From IMG/VR virus record IMGVR_UViG_3300005286_000518, positions 1 through 44,159 of that record: a stretch of 44,159 nucleotides of DNA, one strand, 5' to 3'. Positions 1-43,026 of the stretch are shown one piece after another; positions within the stretch are counted from its first letter, which is position 1; every line of letters starts with the position of its first letter. The notes beneath the pieces were generated by a model, which was not told where the DNA came from, searched no databases, and saw only the letters and a list, made by a program, of their open reading frames with translations. The translations under genes were made by a program, and so were the position numbers. Source of the DNA: a virus (Duplodnaviria > Caudoviricetes).

Positions 1-1005
1 ATGGCGATAGGTCCCTACTCCCCAACCTGGGAAGAAGCCCTCAAAGACTTCCTCCTCCATATCAAAGCCACGAAAGCCCCCAAGACGCTGCGCTTCTACG
101 ACGTGCAGCTGCGGCAACTGATCCGCTGGACCGGGCGAGAGAGCGTCGACTTTACGTCCTTCGGCAAGCGGCACCTCGACCGCTATTTGGCGGAGCGGGC
201 GGAGTCGGTCTCGCGCAACACCCTGCGCCATGACGCGATTGCCGCCAAGAGCTTCTTCAAGTGGTGCGCCAAGAATGATCTTCTTTTGAGGAATCCCTTA
301 GCGGAGTACGAGGTGCACAACGCGCCCCGTCCTGCTATGTACATGCCGACCCTGGAGGACATGCAGGCCCTGCTTACCGCGCTGGGTGATTACTGGAACC
401 CGGAGAAGAACCCCGGCATGAAAAATATCCCCCGCGCCCGCAGGCTCGTGCATAGAGAGCGAAACTACGCCCTGCTGCTGCTCCTCTTGGATAGCGCCTG
501 CCGGATCGGGGAGGTGCTGAACCTGAAGCTGGAGGACTACCGGCCCAAAGCCTTTGAGATCACGGTGCGGGAGAGCAAGGGGAAAGAGCCGCGCACCGTG
601 CCGATCAGTGCGGGAACGGTGGAGGCTATTTCTTCCTGGCTGAAGACGCGCGAGCGATTGATGAGCGGGGCCGCCCCGGAAGAAGATGAGGGCTGGTTGT
701 TCCTCTCGGAGTACGGGACCCAGATGGACTCGGGCCGATTTTTGAAGGCGATCAAGGCGGTGCTGCGCTTCGCCGGACTCTCCGAGAACATCACCCTGCA
801 CTCTCTCAGACGGCACAGCATCAATAAGCTATCCAAGATCAACGTGCTCGGCGCGCAACATATCGCGGGCCACAAGGACACCAAGACCACGCTGCTCTAC
901 ACCAAGCTCGATCCCGGCCATTTGCGGGAGACCCACGATCAGGCGGGCGTGGTGGACGCGGTGCTCTCCAACAGGAGGGTAGCCAAGCGCAAGCGCCTCA
1001 CCTGA
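1..1005 (+). CDS. int: Tyrosine recombinase/integrase
   Basis: Catalytic motifs ACRIGE (R), ESKG (K), HSLRR (HxxR), IAGH and LLYT (Y); N-terminal core-binding-like domain. Confidence 0.95.
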   Translation: MAIGPYSPTWEEALKDFLLHIKATKAPKTLRFYDVQLRQLIRWTGRESVDFTSFGKRHLDRYLAERAESVSRNTLRHDAIAAKSFFKWCAKNDLLLRNPLAEYEVHNAPRPAMYMPTLEDMQALLTALGDYWNPEKNPGMKNIPRARRLVHRERNYALLLLLLDSACRIGEVLNLKLEDYRPKAFEITVRESKGKEPRTVPISAGTVEAISSWLKTRERLMSGAAPEEDEGWLFLSEYGTQMDSGRFLKAIKAVLRFAGLSENITLHSLRRHSINKLSKINVLGAQHIAGHKDTKTTLLYTKLDPGHLRETHDQAGVVDAVLSNRRVAKRKRLT

Positions 1006-2390: not shown

Positions 2391-3372
2391 ACCTGCCCGC
2401 GCAGCACGCGCGATGACCGCTCCGAGCGCCGACCGGCAAGTTACTTTCCACACCCTTCTGGTGGCGGCGCGCAATCAATGGCTCATGGACGCGATGAGCG
2501 AAGCGCTGAAAAACGTAGAGCCGGCGACCCTGAAGGCAGAGATCGTTCGCCTCGTCCCGGCGGACGTGCAGAAGATTCTGGCGGGCGCGGGCGTGCGGGA
2601 TGAACATGTCTTTCCCACGCCCAGCGTCCTGCGGGCCGCCCCGTCGCTCGTCGGGTACTACCGTCTGCTCCTGGGTTCTCCCCAGAAGACGTTCTACGGC
2701 ACGGGAACGGGTATGGGGCAGGTGAAGAGCATGGAAACGAGCGGGACGATCAATGCGGCCCAGGAAGGGCTGCTGGAGGCGTTCTGCGAGGCCATGTGCG
2801 CTTCCCTGGCGGAGCTGGTTCGCAAGGTGTCGCCGACTATCACCGACCAGGACGTGCGCGAACTGCCGCTGCTGACACTCGGTTCCCAGTTCCAGGGTGG
2901 CAACAACAACACCATCGGAAAAGCGATCACCGATGGAGTGTTCAAGGCCATTGCCGCGGCCCTCGATGGATACGTGATCGAGCAGACCGCCAAGACGTTG
3001 GAGGTTCAGAACGACGCGGGTGAGGTGTTTGTCGTGACCCTCGCCAGCGATCCCGACGTGACGATCCAGAAGCGGACCGACAAGGACACGGAGAATCTGG
3101 TCGCCATCGAGATCAAAGGGGGGACGGACGACAGTAACGCCCACAACAGGGCAGGTGAAGCCGAGAAGTCGCACATCAAAGCGAAGAAGGACAAGGGATA
3201 CGGCGACTGCTGGACGCTCTTTCAGGTTCGGGAGCTCGATCAGGATACGCTGGCCGGGGAATCTCCAACGACGGATGCCTGGTTTGATGTGTCGGAGGTG
3301 GTCGCTCAGGAAGGTGACGCCTGGGACGAGTTCTGCGAAGAAATCAAGTCGATTATGGGCATTGACGACTGA
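2383..3372 (+). CDS. Type II restriction endonuclease, XcyI family (predicted CCCGGG)
   Basis: Overlaps the MTase end; PD-(D/E)XK motif DPDV...IEIKGG, plus HNRAGEAEKSH and YYRLLLG segments I recognise from the XcyI family. Confidence 0.82.
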   Translation: MNKPARAARAMTAPSADRQVTFHTLLVAARNQWLMDAMSEALKNVEPATLKAEIVRLVPADVQKILAGAGVRDEHVFPTPSVLRAAPSLVGYYRLLLGSPQKTFYGTGTGMGQVKSMETSGTINAAQEGLLEAFCEAMCASLAELVRKVSPTITDQDVRELPLLTLGSQFQGGNNNTIGKAITDGVFKAIAAALDGYVIEQTAKTLEVQNDAGEVFVVTLASDPDVTIQKRTDKDTENLVAIEIKGGTDDSNAHNRAGEAEKSHIKAKKDKGYGDCWTLFQVRELDQDTLAGESPTTDAWFDVSEVVAQEGDAWDEFCEEIKSIMGIDD

Positions 3373-3414
3373 CCCCTTTCCTGGCATACCGGACCTGTGA
3401 TCTCCTATTTCTCT

Positions 3415-3446
3415 GGCGTACTCTCTGTGAGTGCGCCTTCTTTTTT
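3415..3446 (+). terminator. Intrinsic terminator after the RM operon
   Basis: GGCGTACTC/GAGTGCGCC stem followed by TTCTTTTTT. Confidence 0.7.
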
Positions 3447-3564
3447 GTGATCAGGCGTACAGACCCTATTCTCACACTTGGTAGGCTGGATGCTGTAGGG
3501 CGGGGTTGAGAAGACATACATGCTGATCCCGGAAAGTCCAAGCACCTCAAGGATCACAAAGAAA

Positions 3565-6049: not shown

Positions 6050-6224
6050 CCTCGCCAGCCTCTTCATCTTCCTCACCGGCCTCATCATGGGCATTTTCTT
6101 AGGGGCGAATATCCCCAAGAGTGATGACCTGCTGATTACCGGCTATGAGAAGGTGAAAGAGATGCAGCATGCCAAGTTTGTGCGGGATGTAGAAGATTAT
6201 TTGAGAGAGAAAGGAGAGAGATGA
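6033..6224 (+). CDS. Small membrane protein
   Basis: N-terminal hydrophobic helix; overlaps its neighbours. Confidence 0.6.
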   Translation: MRTLLNLASLFIFLTGLIMGIFLGANIPKSDDLLITGYEKVKEMQHAKFVRDVEDYLREKGER

Positions 6225-6571
6225 ATGAGCAAGAGCTGGACGAAAAGCTAGAGACTATCTGCTCCGAACTGGGCAGAGGGAGGGTAATGGATGAACAAAC
6301 AAGGGAGAGAATGTTCAAGTTCAGGCAGGATGGAATCAGCTACCGAAAGATAGCGGAAATGTTTGGTCTGAATCATCCAAACACAGCAAGACATCATATC
6401 ATCCAGTATATGAAAGGGGTCGCAATCAGCCCCTCTAATAGAGGACTCCCCATCATTCCGATTAACAAGTTCACAAAACGTGAAATTTTGGAAGCTTTTA
6501 TCGAACTTTACGACCGTAAGAAGATGGAAAAAGATGAGCTTATAGATAACATTCTTAGAATTAAGATTTAA
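6221..6571 (+). CDS. HTH-domain protein
   Basis: QDGISYRKIAEMFGL..PNTARHH helix-turn-helix-like segment; AT-rich; flanked by 18-bp direct repeats. Confidence 0.7.
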   Translation: MNEQELDEKLETICSELGRGRVMDEQTRERMFKFRQDGISYRKIAEMFGLNHPNTARHHIIQYMKGVAISPSNRGLPIIPINKFTKREILEAFIELYDRKKMEKDELIDNILRIKI

Positions 6572-6592
6572 TATGAGAGAGAAAGGAGAGAA

Positions 6593-6865
6593 GTGACGGC
6601 AAAAGACTTTATCAAGCGTAAGTGCCTGCTTTATAACGCGCACGGTATGCACGTTCTGGCATTTGGTAGCAACGGCAAGGCTGGAAAGGTAGAGCTGCCA
6701 GACCTGTTAGACGAATATGCACATGAAAAAGTGCGAGAGGTGGGAGAAGTGATACGGGAAGCAGTGTACGAGTACGTTATGTCCGATATGGACATTGGCG
6801 CTTCAGCCACAGATGAGATTATTACTGGCATAGTCCGCAGATATACAGAGAAAGGGGAGAAGTGA
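6593..6865 (+). CDS. Hypothetical protein
   Basis: GTG start after AAAGGAG. Confidence 0.65.
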   Translation: MTAKDFIKRKCLLYNAHGMHVLAFGSNGKAGKVELPDLLDEYAHEKVREVGEVIREAVYEYVMSDMDIGASATDEIITGIVRRYTEKGEK

Positions 6866-7230
6866 AGCGGCCTCGCTATCTCACTGAGGGCGACCGCATT
6901 AAGTTCGCAGAAGAGAAACAGGCATATACGGTGCAGGCGACTTCAGATCGGTACAGCGTGTGTACTAAGCCGTTCAATCCCAAGAAGACCGTGTTGTACA
7001 GCATCGTAGATTGGGAAGAGCAGGTGCGCGGAACTGAGAACGTCATTTTTTGCAATGGAGCAGAAACCCAGGAGCAGTGCTTTCAAATGCTGGTGCGGCT
7101 GCTGGAGGGGCATTCTGAGGTGAGCTATCGGAACCGGATACCACTGGTCGTGGACTGGGTGAGAAACGCGCTCGGTGAAGATGTGCTCGCGGCAGAAGAA
7201 CAAATAGCAGCCATCCTGGACCGCCACTGA
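6862..7230 (+). CDS. Hypothetical phage protein
   Basis: GTGA overlap, 122 aa. Confidence 0.7.
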   Translation: MKRPRYLTEGDRIKFAEEKQAYTVQATSDRYSVCTKPFNPKKTVLYSIVDWEEQVRGTENVIFCNGAETQEQCFQMLVRLLEGHSEVSYRNRIPLVVDWVRNALGEDVLAAEEQIAAILDRH

Positions 7231-7279
7231 CTAAGCCACCCCTTCCTGCTATGCTTCGCCCTCGAAGGAGGGTGAGCAC

Positions 7280-7897
7280 ATGGCAGACTTCCCCCGCTAC
7301 ACCACACTTTCGCAAGAAGAAAAAGCCCGCATCGTCGGCACCACTGGACCCGGCAAGAAGCCAATCCTGAAGACCCACAGTTTTCCGGTCCCCTTTCCCG
7401 ACGGCACCGAGGGTACCTGCTCCTACGAGCGCCTAGGACCCGCGTATCACCGCTTCGACTACCGCTACGCTGATGGGGCGGCCATGCCCCGCCAGTACCA
7501 CACCCGACCACTGCCTACCATTGACGACGTAGTACAGGTCGGCCTGGAATTCAGCATCCGCGTGTTCCAGGAGGCGATGGAGGTAGAGCGGCGCGATTAC
7601 TTCGCCCGCATCAGCCCACCCACGGACGGCAGTAGAGTGCCCAACCCCAACAAATTCCGCATGGAGGCGGGAAGGGCCAAGGAGATAGGCGGCAAGTACG
7701 CTTTGTGCCTCCCGTTTCCCAGCGGCAAGCGCTATGTACGGGCCAGTGATCCGGTCAGGACTTTTGAGGAAGCTGAGGAATTATGGAGAACCCGGCGTGA
7801 TGATCGGTTCGTCATTGCCTGCTGCAACCGCATGGACCGGTGCTGGGAGCTGCTGAAGTACAACCCCCTGAAGAAGGAGGGGCACCCCGTCCGTTGA
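7280..7897 (+). CDS. Hypothetical protein (moron-like)
   Basis: Own -10 (TGc-TATGCT) and strong SD GAAGGAGG; flanked by a 13-bp direct repeat. Confidence 0.75.
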   Translation: MADFPRYTTLSQEEKARIVGTTGPGKKPILKTHSFPVPFPDGTEGTCSYERLGPAYHRFDYRYADGAAMPRQYHTRPLPTIDDVVQVGLEFSIRVFQEAMEVERRDYFARISPPTDGSRVPNPNKFRMEAGRAKEIGGKYALCLPFPSGKRYVRASDPVRTFEEAEELWRTRRDDRFVIACCNRMDRCWELLKYNPLKKEGHPVR

Positions 7898-7922
7898 CGG
7901 CCGCAGTCCTTCCTGCTATGTT
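7894..7922 (+). promoter_or_regulatory. Sigma70-type promoter with no downstream ORF
   Basis: TTGACG (7894-7899), 17-nt spacer, TGc-TATGTT (7917-7922). Confidence 0.65.
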
Positions 7923-7928
7923 GTCCCT

Positions 7929-7992
7929 GTCTTGTTCATGGGTAGGTTACTCACCCATTAAAAAAGCCCCACCATCTCGGCGGGGCTTTTTT
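7929..7992 (+). ncRNA. Candidate ~64-nt trans-acting antisense sRNA
   Basis: Promoter, ATGGGT/ACCCAT hairpin, terminator; 5' end complementary to the start-codon region of the minus-strand gene at 9277. Confidence 0.5.
7960..7992. terminator. Bidirectional intrinsic terminator
   Basis: AAAAAAGCCCC...GGGGCTTTTTT between convergent transcription units. Confidence 0.85.
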
Positions 7993-8202
7993 CTATGTTT
8001 CCTTGCGATTCAGTAGGTGCTGTACTTTCTGGGTGTGGTCAATGCCCAATGCTTTGCCAATCTCGCCTAGGGTGTGGCCGTCTGCCCGCATTTTCTTGGC
8101 GGTGGCTACTTCGTCATCCGTGTAGCGGCGGTAGGGTTTGAGGGAGCGCTTGACTTGGCCCGTGCCGTTGCAGCAGGGGCAGGTGATGAGGGTGTCAGTC
8201 AT
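7993..8202 (-). CDS. Small protein with CxxC motif and HTH-like C-terminus
   Basis: CPCCNGTG and ADGHTLGEIGKALGI. Confidence 0.7.
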   Translation of the reverse strand: MTDTLITCPCCNGTGQVKRSLKPYRRYTDDEVATAKKMRADGHTLGEIGKALGIDHTQKVQHLLNRKET

Positions 8203-8825: not shown

Positions 8826-8873
8826 AATGTGGCTTAATTAGGGGATGGGGCGGGAAACCGCCCCGGTTAGTGA

Positions 8874-9116: not shown

Positions 9117-9157
9117 GGTGTGTTGATTAGGTTGGTAAGGTGTCCGGCGCTCTCCCC

Positions 9158-9277
9158 CTACCAGGGGAAGAACGCCTTGAGGATGGCTCCCAGTTCCTTG
9201 AGGACTCCTTTGAGGATGCCTCGCAGTTCGCGGGTGAGGATGCTTTGGTTGATCCTCTGCCAGAGTGTCTTGCTCAT
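9158..9277 (-). CDS. 39-aa basic amphipathic peptide (MSKTLWQRINQSILTRELRGILKGVLKELGAILKAFFPW)
   Basis: Manual translation; first ORF after a promoter-like region; TAACCAATCGCCC-ATG start context. Confidence 0.55.
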   Translation of the reverse strand: MSKTLWQRINQSILTRELRGILKGVLKELGAILKAFFPW

Positions 9278-9303
9278 GGGCGATTGGTTACTTCTTAGAC
9301 ATC

Positions 9304-9335
9304 ATTATAATGCCAGAACCCTCACTTGTTGTCAA
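9304..9335 (-). promoter_or_regulatory. Putative leftward promoter
   Basis: TTGACA and TATAAT on the minus strand, but 20 nt apart (a 17-nt spacing gives CATTAT). Confidence 0.5.
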
Positions 9336-9387
9336 CAGTTGGTAATAGTGTGAAATGTGAGATTATCAGGTTCAAATCCGGCGTCAG

Positions 9388-9421
9388 AAAAAGAAAACCC
9401 CCAAGCGATGTGCTTGAGGGT
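9388..9421 (-). terminator. Intrinsic terminator ending the ATPase/relaxase operon
   Basis: ACCC-C-CAAGC/GCTTG-A-GGGT stem with an A-run on the + strand (U-tract on the minus strand). Confidence 0.6.
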
Positions 9422-9426
9422 GAGAA

Positions 9427-9708
9427 TTAATACTGGTCGCTCAGCAGCAGCGTGGTAACACTGCGGTCCCATTCGGTAATCACGTAACACTTGCGCTGGT
9501 CCGGGAGCTTATAGCAGGAGAAGATGCGCTCTCCGTCCCTGAGCGCTCGCTTATTGGCGTTCTTGTCTTCCTGGTCCAGATCCCCATCGTCGCCCAACAC
9601 ATGCCGCATGATGAGACTGGCGGGAGAAATGCCCTGGCTGATGCAGGCGGCCAAAGCTTCCGGGGTGGAAACCAGGCGGCCTAAATCAAACAGTGGCTCC
9701 GCGCCCAT
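9427..9708 (-). CDS. Conserved plasmid/ICE-associated small protein
   Basis: LFDLGRLVSTPEAL...RHVLGDDGDL..EDKNAN...ITEWDRSVTTLLL pattern seen in plasmid/ICE proteins; start taken at ATG 9708. Confidence 0.8.
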   Translation of the reverse strand: MGAEPLFDLGRLVSTPEALAACISQGISPASLIMRHVLGDDGDLDQEDKNANKRALRDGERIFSCYKLPDQRKCYVITEWDRSVTTLLLSDQY

Positions 9709-9709
9709 C

Positions 9710-10132
9710 TCAGGCCGCCTCCGCAACAAAGCGCTTGCGTTCGGGGTCGAACAGCGCACCCTCCATCGTGCCGTTCAGGTACTTCAGGTTCTTCGGGCGG
9801 GCAATGGTCGCCTCGACAAACCCAACTTCGTTATCGGCCAGAATTGCCTGCACCATCTCCCAGAGGGAATCGTGCACCTCTACCCGTTCCCTCCAGTCAG
9901 AATCAAACGGTTCGCCGTACAGCCGCTTCATGCAGGTAGCCGTAATGCGGCAGTAGCGAATCTCCGCGCCCGTGGGCTGACAGCAGAAGACGATTAACTC
10001 ATCCCAGGTCATGCCGCCCTCACCCCCGTTCGGCTCCGCCAGTTTCATGGCGTAGACCGGCTCGCTAGGCGAGAGCTGGGCAATCCATTTTTCCAAGGTG
10101 GGAAAGCCGACGTAGACCGGATAGACGTTCAT
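9710..10132 (-). CDS. Hypothetical protein
   Basis: Strong SD AAAGGAGG; 140 aa. Confidence 0.75.
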   Translation of the reverse strand: MNVYPVYVGFPTLEKWIAQLSPSEPVYAMKLAEPNGGEGGMTWDELIVFCCQPTGAEIRYCRITATCMKRLYGEPFDSDWRERVEVHDSLWEMVQAILADNEVGFVEATIARPKNLKYLNGTMEGALFDPERKRFVAEAA

Positions 10133-10169
10133 GGGTCCATCCTCCTTTCGCCGGCTTACCGTAGCAAAG

Positions 10170-10865
10170 TTACGCGGGTGGTAGAAGGGGCTTCACCTCA
10201 CCCTGATTGGTCCAGGTGATGAGGTCGGTGGTGAACCAGGCCAACTGATCCAGGACGCCGATGGAGCGCGCAATGCCCGGAATGCGGGCGGTCGATTCCA
10301 CCACGATCAAGAGGGTGGGAACGGCGCAGTCGGTGGCATCGTAGAGTCCGCTCGGCTTCCCCGCGAAAAACACGGCGTAGGCATCCGCCTTTTGTTCCCA
10401 GACGCGCAAGCCTTCCGTGTGTCTGTCGACTTCCACAATGCCGCAGAAGGGGCATTCGGGCTGGGGGATGATAACAAGAGCGTCCGGGGTGACATTCGTC
10501 CATTCTAGGCCCTTGTACGCAATCCTGGTGGCCCCGTTGGTGACGCCCCAGGCCAGCACATCCCGCACCCGGTAGTCATGGGCGAGATTATTCGGCCAGG
10601 CGGCCAGCGCTTCTTTGCGCTGTTTGCAGGTAGCCTCCGAAAGCCGCCAGAGCTTGGGGGCGCTCCCGAGACCGGAGGGGTTGATGCGGTCCACCGACAC
10701 GCGCCGACTGGTGATCCAGCCGCCCTTCTCCAGGGCCAATAAATGTCGCCGCACCGAGTATTCTGGATTGCCGGTGAGCGTCGCCAGGTGGGTTGTGGAA
10801 AGCCAGCCGTACCAGCTCAGGAGCTCGATGTACGGCTCAGTTTTGGGCTTGATCATCGGTTTCAC
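10170..10865 (-). CDS. Replication-relaxation (Replic_Relax) family protein
   Basis: N-terminal wHTH, LAHDYRVRDV, TPDALV, VEVDRHTE...KADAY motifs. Confidence 0.8.
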   Translation of the reverse strand: MKPMIKPKTEPYIELLSWYGWLSTTHLATLTGNPEYSVRRHLLALEKGGWITSRRVSVDRINPSGLGSAPKLWRLSEATCKQRKEALAAWPNNLAHDYRVRDVLAWGVTNGATRIAYKGLEWTNVTPDALVIIPQPECPFCGIVEVDRHTEGLRVWEQKADAYAVFFAGKPSGLYDATDCAVPTLLIVVESTARIPGIARSIGVLDQLAWFTTDLITWTNQGEVKPLLPPA

Positions 10866-12903
10866 CCTGATTCTTGATGATGACCAGGGGTTTGTTGCGC
10901 GCTCCTGGTTGTGGCTTTGCCGGTTCCTCCTCCGCCCGCTGTGCTTCCTCCCAGGTTTTGGCCAGGGCCGTAATCCGCGCTTCCCGAATCGGCCCGATCA
11001 CGTCCGCCACCTTGCCGGGACGCGCCCCAAAGTCCGCAAGCGTGGTAGTGGAGTCCACGACCCGCCGAATCCGAATCTCTCGGCTGGGCGCACCGTCGAT
11101 GCGAAAAATGCAGTGCCCGATAGCAAGCTTCTGGAGCCGCTGGGAGAGCGCTTCCCGCTCCGGCGCTTTAAACTCCCGATCCGGGGCAAACCAGGGAACG
11201 GTGAGGGAAAGCCGCAGACCCTTCTCCAACCGACTCACCCCATGCAGGGGGATCTGGGAGAAGGAGGGATAGGAGAGCTTGGGCATGTGCTCGCCGATGA
11301 TCTTCTTCGCCGCATCGGGATTGCTGCCCCGCACCAGGTTCTGAAGCGCGTTCATCAGTTCCCGTCCGCCCGTGGAGGAGAAGGCCCGAAACTCCTGCTT
11401 TTCATAGCGCACCTTGCCCATGCCGTTTGCATTCTGCATGATCCAGGCAAAGAGCGCATCCCCACCTTGGAGCGGCACCAGCGAAAGTAGCCGCTCCATC
11501 TCCAGTCGAATGAGGAACCCGCCCACGGTAGGTGGCCCATCTTTCCTCATCCGCTCAAAAAGCGCTATGGCCTTCTCCTGGTCGCGCACCAACGTCACGT
11601 CCAGGAACTTGATGTTGTTCTGATGCTCCTCTTTCACCAGCAGCTTGGCGTCCGTGGGCGGCTCAGCAGCGCTAGCCAGATTGGGGGCGAATCGTTTGGC
11701 GTCATCCTCGGAAAGCTTGAAAAAGGCTCTGACCCCTGCCGTGCTCATCGAATTGAGAAAGGCTTTGTTACTCACCTGCGCCTCGTTCTGCAACGCCCAC
11801 AACAGCCGCAGGTTACTGGAGCGGGCAATGGCCGCAATATCCGCCGCCACGTCCTCAATGAAGGGCAGGACAAAGCTCGCCTCATCCACCGCAAATACCA
11901 CGGGTCGGTTGCCTGATTTCCCTCGCTCGGCAAATAAGCGGCGGGTAAACAGGCCCGATAAAGCACGCACCCCAAAGGCAGACACGCGTCTGGCATCCAC
12001 GCAGACCACGATCACCTGCTGCCGATCCCAGAGGCTCGCCAGATCAAGCGTATTTTCTTCGGCGCAGACGATCTGCTTCAAAAAGGGGTTGGTTAGGAAG
12101 TGGCGCAGTTTGTTGATGAGCGGGCCAAGGGCAGACTTTACCGCGTCCACCCGCTTGCCCGCGTGCTCTTCCGTGAAGTAGCGAATCGCCTCCTGGAACG
12201 GCAGGGAATCGTGTTTGGGATCAAGCTTCAGGAGCGCGTTTCGGTAGGCGTCGTTCGTGATGCAGCGCACCATCTCCACGATGGAAAGCTCGTGCGCCAC
12301 CATGAGCGCGGTCAGCTGATTGAGCCCGTCGAGCATCGGCCCAAAGCCCATGCGACCCTCACCCACGTACCCGATCACAAATTCCACGAAGTCCTGAATC
12401 TGGTTGGTCGGCTCCTCCTGCGGCACCAAAAACGGGTTGAGTCCGGGAATGGGAAAGTGGGGATGCACGACCGTTACCGGCACGCCCTCCGGGATGATTT
12501 CCAGGGCGCTGGCAATCCCTTCTTCCTTCGCCTCCAGGATCACCGCGCTATGGCCCATCTGCAGCTGCTGGGCCAGGATCATGCGGGAGAGCACGGTCTT
12601 TCCCACGCCCGTTCCGCCCACAATCAACGCGTGGCGGGAGAACGCCTGGTGGGGAATGGTGTAGGGATCATGGTTGGGGGCAAGGTCAAAGCGCTTCAGG
12701 TTCTCCTCGCCCCAGGGAGTGGTGAGATGCGGTTTCCACTCCTTGGGAACGCGAGGCACCGGCGGCTGCAGGGCGAAGGTGCCGACCTCAAGAGACGGCC
12801 CTATCCCCGAAGACGACGATGCAGAGAGGAGACTTTGGAGATAGGGTGTCACCCCGCTATATTTGTTTGTTTCCTCAGAAATTCCTGTTTGTTCAGGAGA
12901 CAA
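10837..12903 (-). CDS. VirD4/TraD/TrwB-like (FtsK-HerA superfamily) ATPase
   Basis: RHALIVGGTGVGKT Walker A, FAVDEA Walker B, ARS..L.L.WALQ motif; no obvious N-terminal TM anchor. Confidence 0.85.
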   Translation of the reverse strand: MSPEQTGISEETNKYSGVTPYLQSLLSASSSSGIGPSLEVGTFALQPPVPRVPKEWKPHLTTPWGEENLKRFDLAPNHDPYTIPHQAFSRHALIVGGTGVGKTVLSRMILAQQLQMGHSAVILEAKEEGIASALEIIPEGVPVTVVHPHFPIPGLNPFLVPQEEPTNQIQDFVEFVIGYVGEGRMGFGPMLDGLNQLTALMVAHELSIVEMVRCITNDAYRNALLKLDPKHDSLPFQEAIRYFTEEHAGKRVDAVKSALGPLINKLRHFLTNPFLKQIVCAEENTLDLASLWDRQQVIVVCVDARRVSAFGVRALSGLFTRRLFAERGKSGNRPVVFAVDEASFVLPFIEDVAADIAAIARSSNLRLLWALQNEAQVSNKAFLNSMSTAGVRAFFKLSEDDAKRFAPNLASAAEPPTDAKLLVKEEHQNNIKFLDVTLVRDQEKAIALFERMRKDGPPTVGGFLIRLEMERLLSLVPLQGGDALFAWIMQNANGMGKVRYEKQEFRAFSSTGGRELMNALQNLVRGSNPDAAKKIIGEHMPKLSYPSFSQIPLHGVSRLEKGLRLSLTVPWFAPDREFKAPEREALSQRLQKLAIGHCIFRIDGAPSREIRIRRVVDSTTTLADFGARPGKVADVIGPIREARITALAKTWEEAQRAEEEPAKPQPGARNKPLVIIKNQGETDDQAQN

Positions 12904-38204: not shown

Positions 38205-38345
38205 TTAAGCGGATTTCATTTTAGCCAGTTGGCGGCGACAGGTTTCACAGTGTTGCTTGCCCTCGGTTTTAGGGCGGCCACACCGATCACAACGGTGGAC
38301 CGGAAAATAGCGGGCAAGGTAGCGGGCACGCTCTTCTTTGTTCAT
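38205..38345 (-). CDS. Small CxxC-CxxC zinc-finger protein (46 aa)
   Basis: Manual translation with CDRC and CETC. Confidence 0.6.
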   Translation of the reverse strand: MNKEERARYLARYFPVHRCDRCGRPKTEGKQHCETCRRQLAKMKSA

Positions 38346-42978: not shown

Positions 42979-43022
42979 GACTCTTAATCAGCGGGTCATA
43001 GGTTCGAGTCCTATACGACCCA
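42979..43022 (+). repeat. 3' half of tRNA-Lys(CTT): att core (attR-like), not an intact tRNA
   Basis: GA-CTCTTAA-TCAGC anticodon loop, ATAGG-TTCGAGT-CCTAT T-arm, acceptor 3' strand; no D-arm or matching 5' stem upstream. Confidence 0.88.
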
Positions 43023-43026
43023 TCCC

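Follow-up and report, generated by a model that had tools for sequence, protein, structure and literature searches.

A candidate par/Fst-type antisense module with genes between its partners in a prophage of a high-GC diderm host

Our analysis of a 44,159-nt stretch of viral DNA (the window), which is a prophage, identified a predicted 64-nt RNA complementary to the start region of a gene for a 39-aa cationic peptide. The RNA unit and the operon headed by this gene face each other (Table 1). The predicted RNA quite probably regulates the 39-aa gene, and we lean towards a par/Fst-type antisense module in which the RNA would be the antitoxin of the peptide. More tentatively, we propose that the direct-repeat logic of par evolved independently, or was transferred well beyond Firmicutes, here joined to an amphipathic toxin of unrelated kind in a stretched five-gene cassette where a 64-nt RNA made at the operon's far end would gate the first gene over 1.3 kb and the cargo would be co-controlled. 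The facing promoter consensus, the shared terminator, both repeats, the operon order and the size and charge of the peptide are facts of the sequence. The finding rests on one sequence: the collections searched gave no homologue of the RNA or of the peptide from which covariation could be drawn, which counts against the preferred reading.

Table 1. Coordinates of the features discussed, in window positions
Feature	Position	Strand	Description
Integrase	1-1005		
Twin promoter-like site	7227-7254	+	13 bases identical to the small-RNA promoter; ahead of 205-aa ORF 7280-7897
Small-RNA promoter consensus, sigma-70 type	7894-7922	+	TTGACG-17-TATGTT with TG, 9/12
Direct repeat a, RNA copy	7928-7943	+	16 nt
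Predicted 64-nt RNA	7929-7992	+	Predicted fold: 5' tail of 9 nt left unpaired, hairpin at 7938-7958, terminator hairpin
Direct repeat b, RNA copy	7945-7951	+	7 nt, passes through the first-hairpin loop
Bidirectional intrinsic terminator	7960-7992	both	A6-GC stem-T6; common to RNA and leftward operon
Operon gene 5, 69 aa	7993-8202	-	CxxC-type motif, weak helix-turn-helix
Operon gene 4, 99 aa	8219-8518	-	No family; marginal viral matches only
Operon gene 3, 88 aa	8559-8825	-	Mobile phage small gene, with relatives
Operon gene 2, 80 aa	8874-9116	-	Function unassigned; protein search returned itself only
mRNA hairpin, 14 bp	9146-9176	-	Peptide stop codon at apex; no U tract
39-aa cationic amphipathic peptide ORF	9158-9277	-	Operon gene 1, candidate toxin
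Direct repeat a, target copy	9266-9281	+	mRNA −4 to +12, spanning AUG
Direct repeat b, target copy	9286-9292	+	mRNA −15 to −9
Operon promoter consensus, sigma-70 type	9335-9307	-	TTGACA-17-CATTAT, TG; 10/12
Terminator-like site	9397-9421	-	Insulates the operon from leftward genes upstream

Two predicted transcription units converge on one terminator

The original prediction described a good promoter and a strong terminator with no plausible open reading frame between them, and our analysis bears this out. The promoter consensus is present, the terminator folds on both strands in predictions (−19.4 on the plus strand and −23.5 on the minus strand), and no ORF of at least 20 aa lies inside the unit, which is crossed by a 58-aa GTG frame (7840-8016) whose register differs from that of the gene upstream. 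The −35 box includes the stop codon of that gene, ORF 7280-7897, whose relatives occur in 9 of 31 same-family genomes; inspection downstream of these relatives found no comparable RNA. Taken alone the promoter consensus is weak, since 6 promoter-like sites occur between 5000 and 13000 against 3.7±1.7 in shuffles. The +1 of the RNA was inferred from the −10 box (7 nt downstream) and is hence predicted. The 3' arm of the first RNA hairpin exceeds random sequence only modestly (157/4000; 41/420 permutations), a point against the preferred reading. Rfam returned 0 matches above the gathering threshold in the window, a result that extends to C4 and Fst antitoxin RNAs if Rfam includes them, and most of its 17 sub-threshold matches fall on the terminator.

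Facing this unit is a leftward operon with the best promoter consensus of the region. Its genes encode, in order, 39, 80, 88, 99 and 69 aa on a predicted mRNA of ~1340 nt; the last gene ends one base from the RNA terminator, and four genes (1.1 kb) separate the 39-aa gene from it. A simple terminator scanner, which did not list the site at 7960-7992, listed no other minus-strand terminator between 9300 and 7993. The RNA unit and the operon converge on one terminator, and the repeats described below are crossed in opposite directions. The RNA and the 39-aa gene are thus not an unlinked pair, as had been suggested: the type I antitoxin option is supported, but the two units end at the same terminator in a par/Fst layout.

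Relatives of the 88-aa gene (55% identical, in two unrelated viral contigs) lie in ordinary gene runs from which this layout is absent, and neither the 69- nor the 99-aa gene was found in 70 genomes of the class. The 69-aa gene matches HTH_38 with an E value of 0.005, below the cut-off. At the operon promoter, a palindrome that is unique in the window (9327-9337) overlies the −35 box; it is a candidate operator, perhaps for this HTH gene. A GC hairpin without a U tract (8845-8870) is found between the 80- and 88-aa genes.

The predicted RNA is complementary to the start region of the 39-aa gene

The repeat shared by the RNA and the 39-aa gene start consists of two blocks, a (16 nt) and b (7 nt), which confirms and lengthens the match originally claimed. 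The two copies of repeat a are identical at 14 of 16 positions; both differences are T for C and would therefore form U·G pairs in the duplex. Repeat b (GGTTACT) is identical in both copies, and the spacer between the blocks is 1 nt in the RNA copy and 4 nt in the target copy. Comparison of the 15-mer at 7928-7942 with 9266-9280 gives one mismatch, wobble-compatible as had been proposed, and with as many as three mismatches allowed the window contains no further match. Complementarity begins at the predicted +1 and stops short of the promoter. In predicted folds the seed tail is free in the RNA and the target is mostly unpaired in the mRNA.

When pairing was computed against phage starts, a check proposed with the original prediction, the 39-aa start was the strongest of 65 regions, with a duplex of −35.3 kcal/mol (next −23.9). 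This value was reached by none of 300 dinucleotide shuffles and by none of 1000 in which the anti-start core was kept constant (closest −34.6). A 16-mer filter across 11.4 million genome positions passed three sites, the RNA itself, the 39-aa target and one host site, and all 16 bases are paired at the 39-aa target alone. The host site pairs at 15 of 16 positions. A site at G000:C19:7550-7564, with 15 perfectly paired bases across an ATG and a duplex of −27.3, is the best host candidate target, yet its BLAST E value of 0.70 is within chance. Among 8822 window tiles, the runner-up duplex reached −34.5, 0.8 kcal/mol weaker, but is interrupted. Duplex energy alone is not decisive.

Two chance controls illustrate what single repeats can look like. 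At one locus (L176) a repeat matches at 16 of 18 positions over a CAT; it lies inside a coding end, has no promoter and was rejected as chance. Elsewhere an 18-nt wobble run on the non-coding strand reached −32.6. A scan of 82 terminator sides (3085 tests), covering ~400 kb of related elements and this locus and allowing one stem mismatch in terminators, looked for a long first block accompanied by a second block, a promoter or both. Only this locus was returned, with all three present, and it also ranked first in 897 tests at 109 terminator sides from the genome and earlier loci. The scan criteria were drawn from the locus itself, and the scans therefore calibrate the finding and do not prove it. 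It is the conjunction of features, not energy, that singles out the locus. The remaining promoter-terminator units of the prophage yielded no start-codon target.

These controls bear on the possibility that the repeats are a scar without regulation, left when the five-gene cassette was inserted by duplicating the 5' end of a gene, with the promoter arising incidentally as ORF 7280 was inserted. Single 16-18-nt repeats did arise by chance in controls, the left copy reads MNKTGTT-stop, the repeats bracket the cassette as insertion repeats do, the small-RNA promoter has its 13-nt twin at 7241, and the region is mosaic. TAA, a C-rich spacer and ATG are moreover usual here, the same pattern being found at ordinary starts in many unrelated records. 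However, a scar gives no reason for a match that starts at the predicted +1, for differences that are solely wobble-compatible, or for the loss of 3 nt between two intact blocks. It would also leave the left copy 20 nt behind a terminator and without a promoter. Even if ORF 7280 was inserted as presumed, the unit has a promoter directly ahead of it. We regard a scar as rather unlikely, though a real rival. The alternative offered with the original prediction, a decayed gene start, may also apply.

A cationic peptide and its message

The 39-aa peptide falls below the 60 aa used for small type I toxins and has a charge of +5 and a C-terminal FFPW. A single-sequence model predicts a single helix (residues 6-36, mean pLDDT 85). 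Its hydrophobic moment lies above that of shuffles at 22-26 residues (59 and 50 of 5000 shuffles) and is not significant at 11, 18 and 30 residues (329, 269 and 228 of 5000). A hydrophobic transmembrane helix is typical of type I toxins, according to the parts of PMC8309996 available to us; the peptide has no hydrophobic transmembrane stretch (best 19-mer Kyte-Doolittle 1.03). It lacks the Fst/Ldr signature (a hydrophobic helix carrying P/D/S/TxxxG, conserved Trp, charged C-terminal tail) and has no Pfam match, and a genome search with PF13955 at E 1 came back empty. Because of the charge, the single predicted helix and the moment at 22-26 residues, the modelled peptide fits a surface-seeking membrane peptide rather than a type I transmembrane helix. 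Under the preferred reading it would probably be toxic and likely membrane-active.

The mRNA leader of the 39-aa gene is ~20 nt long, with no Shine-Dalgarno sequence and no self-masking stem. The gene shares the usual start context of the prophage, a stop-like TAA followed by a C-rich spacer and ATG, in which most phage genes start without a Shine-Dalgarno sequence. A purine-rich start repeat, AGAGAAAGG, is common to three genes at 6199-6865. The hairpin on the peptide stop codon folds at −27.8 on the mRNA strand against −21.1 on the opposite strand, and 0 of 1000 shuffles were as strong. Concerning the upstream helix that shields the 5' end of the par mRNA, fold prediction gives here a 5-bp pairing between the mRNA 5' end and bases past this hairpin; a comparison of the mRNA 5' end with the operon 3' end found nothing convincing.

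In the par/Fst-type module that we prefer, the RNA unit and the operon would both be transcribed in the lysogen. The unpaired 5' tail of the RNA would nucleate on codons 1-4 of the 39-aa gene, and pairing would then open the first RNA hairpin and grow to ~22 bp with a 4-nt mRNA bulge; the predicted cofold gain with a 185-nt stretch of the mRNA leader is 20.5 kcal/mol. On the full-length mRNA, a kissing contact between the terminator loops, which are complementary, could contribute further. The duplex would cover −15 to +12 and block ribosome loading, because a message with such a short leader and neither a Shine-Dalgarno sequence nor a self-masking stem would depend on the covered region. The stop-codon hairpin would leave a stable ~160-nt peptide message, and this stable short message could give the asymmetry that an addiction module needs. 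Once the prophage is lost or the RNA decays, the peptide would be freed, as addiction or as an abortive response. Genes 2-5 may in addition undergo Rho polarity as a side effect.

Alternatively, the RNA may be real and the peptide a harmless leader, the block in translation shutting genes 2-5 through the stop hairpin or Rho polarity as a C4-like lysogeny switch. The RNA target does head a five-gene operon, the hairpin on the stop codon is strong and strand-biased, the host has Rho, and the last operon gene carries a weak HTH. The hairpin nevertheless ends ~30 nt ahead of the next start, leaving that start unmasked, and genes 2-5 contain no antirepressor family. The 80 nt past the hairpin are C-rich (27 C vs 17 G), but a similar skew of C over G runs throughout the operon. 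In P1, c4-icd-ant is fully repressed only when C4 is present (PMC8198154, in the text available); C4, however, is encoded within the operon under its control and is not convergent with it. We consider such a switch quite improbable.

Much the weakest proposal, and in our view a very remote one, is that one RNA silences many leftward early genes starting CCAUGAAC and so replaces a CI repressor: the best four secondary starts (38704, 38345, 41288 and 10132) do all begin with CCAUGAAC, U at 7935 is able to pair with both AUGAGC and AUGAAC, and the host encodes Hfq, but their duplexes are −18.5 to −20.8 against −34.5 at the main site in this comparison, their cofold gains −1.6 to −10.6 against −22.9, 40 of 300 core-fixed shuffles equal the four, and the target genes are internal to their own operons. 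The weaker sites originally named at 38345 and 38704 thus exist but are not special, the best four secondary starts being within the null (40/300), and with secondary sites at null level the idea of a general silencer of leftward early genes is not supported. A substitute for an absent CI is likewise unsupported; weak HTH matches in two ORFs, at 6221 and 7993, make a protein repressor possible.

Comparison with known antisense systems

The par(pAD1) family is defined by convergent promoters, a bidirectional terminator and pairing through the repeats DRa and DRb that sequesters the initiation site (Weaver, PMC7472228), a layout on which PMC4147584 agrees; the direct-repeat sequences are poorly conserved between par systems (PMC7472228). 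Both sources were available in part, and the comparison holds for those parts. Convergent promoters, here as consensus sites, are shared with par(pAD1) RNA I/RNA II and with Fst loci including SprA1/SprA1AS (PMC7472228; PMC4147584). Also shared with par(pAD1) are the bidirectional intrinsic terminator, with U tracts on both strands here, and two oppositely read direct repeats over the initiation site of a small peptide. Par-like loci have a short antitoxin RNA and lie on mobile elements including phages, as does our predicted RNA.

Several features differ. RNA I of par is ~230 nt and monocistronic, whereas the message here carries four more genes and is ~1340 nt (PMC7472228; PMC4147584). A 5' stem-loop masks the Shine-Dalgarno sequence in par; here there is neither, and the start is mostly unpaired. 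The par toxin mRNA has a YUNR U-turn in its terminator loop, a feature that is not universal, while the loop here is GAGAU with no YUNR. Unlike the par toxin with its Fst/Ldr signature, the 39-aa peptide lacks PxxxG. Par-like regulation is placed in low-GC Firmicutes in the available parts of PMC7472228, in contrast to a 68% GC diderm here.

The nearest polycistronic prophage case is yonT-yoyJ/SR6 of SPβ, in which the toxin is also the first gene of a polycistronic mRNA; SR6, however, is a cis-overlapping antisense RNA in the operon that acts via the 3' UTR and RNase III, whereas here pairing would run through distant repeats at the start codon (PMC5848175, in part). Limited complementarity between a non-overlapping small RNA and a toxin mRNA is likewise found in TisB/IstR-1, ShoB/OhsC and Zor/Orz as well as in DinQ/AgrB, but these pairs are divergent and pair in a long 5' UTR far from the start, not convergently at a ~20-nt leader (PMC4147584). 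RalR/RalA has comparably limited complementarity (16 nt for RalA), yet RalR is a DNase (PMC4041452, in the portions available). P1 C4 similarly silences an operon led by a small inhibitory gene and is needed in lysogeny; it lies in the same operon as its icd-ant target, whereas the present units are convergent, with no antirepressor found and no Rfam match (PMC8198154). In the literature listings covered, which take in few subscription journals, no par-type locus came up in which other genes separate the toxin from the terminator. The locus is likely a variation on the par layout with a non-Fst peptide and genes between the partners.

Searches for type I toxin-antitoxin systems look for homologous toxins and for RNAs lying next to the toxin gene or overlapping it. 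If our preferred reading is true, a high-GC diderm host would carry a par/Fst layout whose peptide is not Fst and whose partners are separated by inserted genes, a class invisible to homology- or adjacency-based type I searches. Its members could be found by scanning for a repeat over a start codon together with a shared terminator and a facing promoter. Under the more tentative proposal, cargo genes would ride inside an addiction module and be co-controlled by it. The 39-aa peptide is a new candidate membrane-active peptide, and the whole unit spans 1.5 kb.

Searches for relatives of the RNA and the peptide

A blastn search of 60 related genomes found no homologue of the RNA, its matches being mostly terminator stems. 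A single-sequence covariance model gave weak matches in 27 of the 60; the 14 that were fetched are ordinary terminators without a start-codon repeat longer than 12 nt. The two-block pattern matched 0 viral contigs, 37 genome stretches, none with two copies, and 47 metagenome stretches, among which a single contig has the two copies, its sequence matching the window at 100% identity. Annotated phages returned three short chance matches for the DNA and none for the peptide. The 39-aa peptide had no relative beyond E 0.7 in the 60 genomes and no Atlas look-alike, and one protein search returned only itself; another returned itself and an 807-aa repeat protein, the latter judged a chance hit.

Prophage setting and other short units

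The prophage, in which 70 ORFs were scanned, sits in contig C265 of a genome (G000) of 68% GC. The host is a diderm: its genome encodes Omp85/BamA, as well as Hfq, RNase III and Rho, the last three in keeping with the preferred reading. Alongside the integrase, the prophage carries an XcyI-type restriction-modification pair, a DnaD-like replication gene, terminase, portal, capsid and tail genes, an M23 peptidase, RusA and Erf; its capsid relatives are just 24-32% identical. The candidate RNA and operon lie within a mosaic block, with replication genes on one side and packaging genes on the other. Three DNA sequencing runs of one sample, which may be the source, contain the whole stretch unbroken and without variants, and no RNA run was listed as holding it.

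A 44-46-nt segment (42979-43024) is repeated at three contig ends, with a poorer copy ~170 bases ahead of the window. C265 carries it at either end, C160 and C223 have it at ends as well, and related integrases accompany it. Judged by eye, we read it as a tRNA 3' half acting as an attachment site; ARAGORN reported no tRNA gene on the contig. This would make a tandem array of elements at one tRNA-like attachment site.

Leftward plasmid- or ICE-like genes occupy 9427-12903 within the prophage. Among them are a Replic_Relax-like ORF and an ATPase that resembles coupling proteins, with relatives on contig C14 and in the neighbouring element. Relatives of ORF 7280 and ORF 9427 are found together at another locus (L016). 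At 1005, 1224, 7230 and 7897, the −35 box of a promoter-like site overlaps or adjoins the stop codon of the gene before it, which suggests cassette-wise assembly.

Two further short units were observed. After the integrase (1006-1330), a promoter (TTGACA-17-TATACT) precedes a 45-aa ORF (1087-1224), and a second promoter follows whose −35 box contains the stop codon of that ORF. The short transcript from this second promoter ends in a 16-bp terminator just ahead of the methylase gene, and a start-codon target for it was not found. After the XcyI endonuclease gene (3361-3447), a promoter-like site and a terminator delimit a predicted transcript of ~50 nt, whose pyrimidine-rich 5' part resembles a unit at G000:C1:23427 and forms a weak predicted duplex (−22) with the start at 6862, which is purine-rich.
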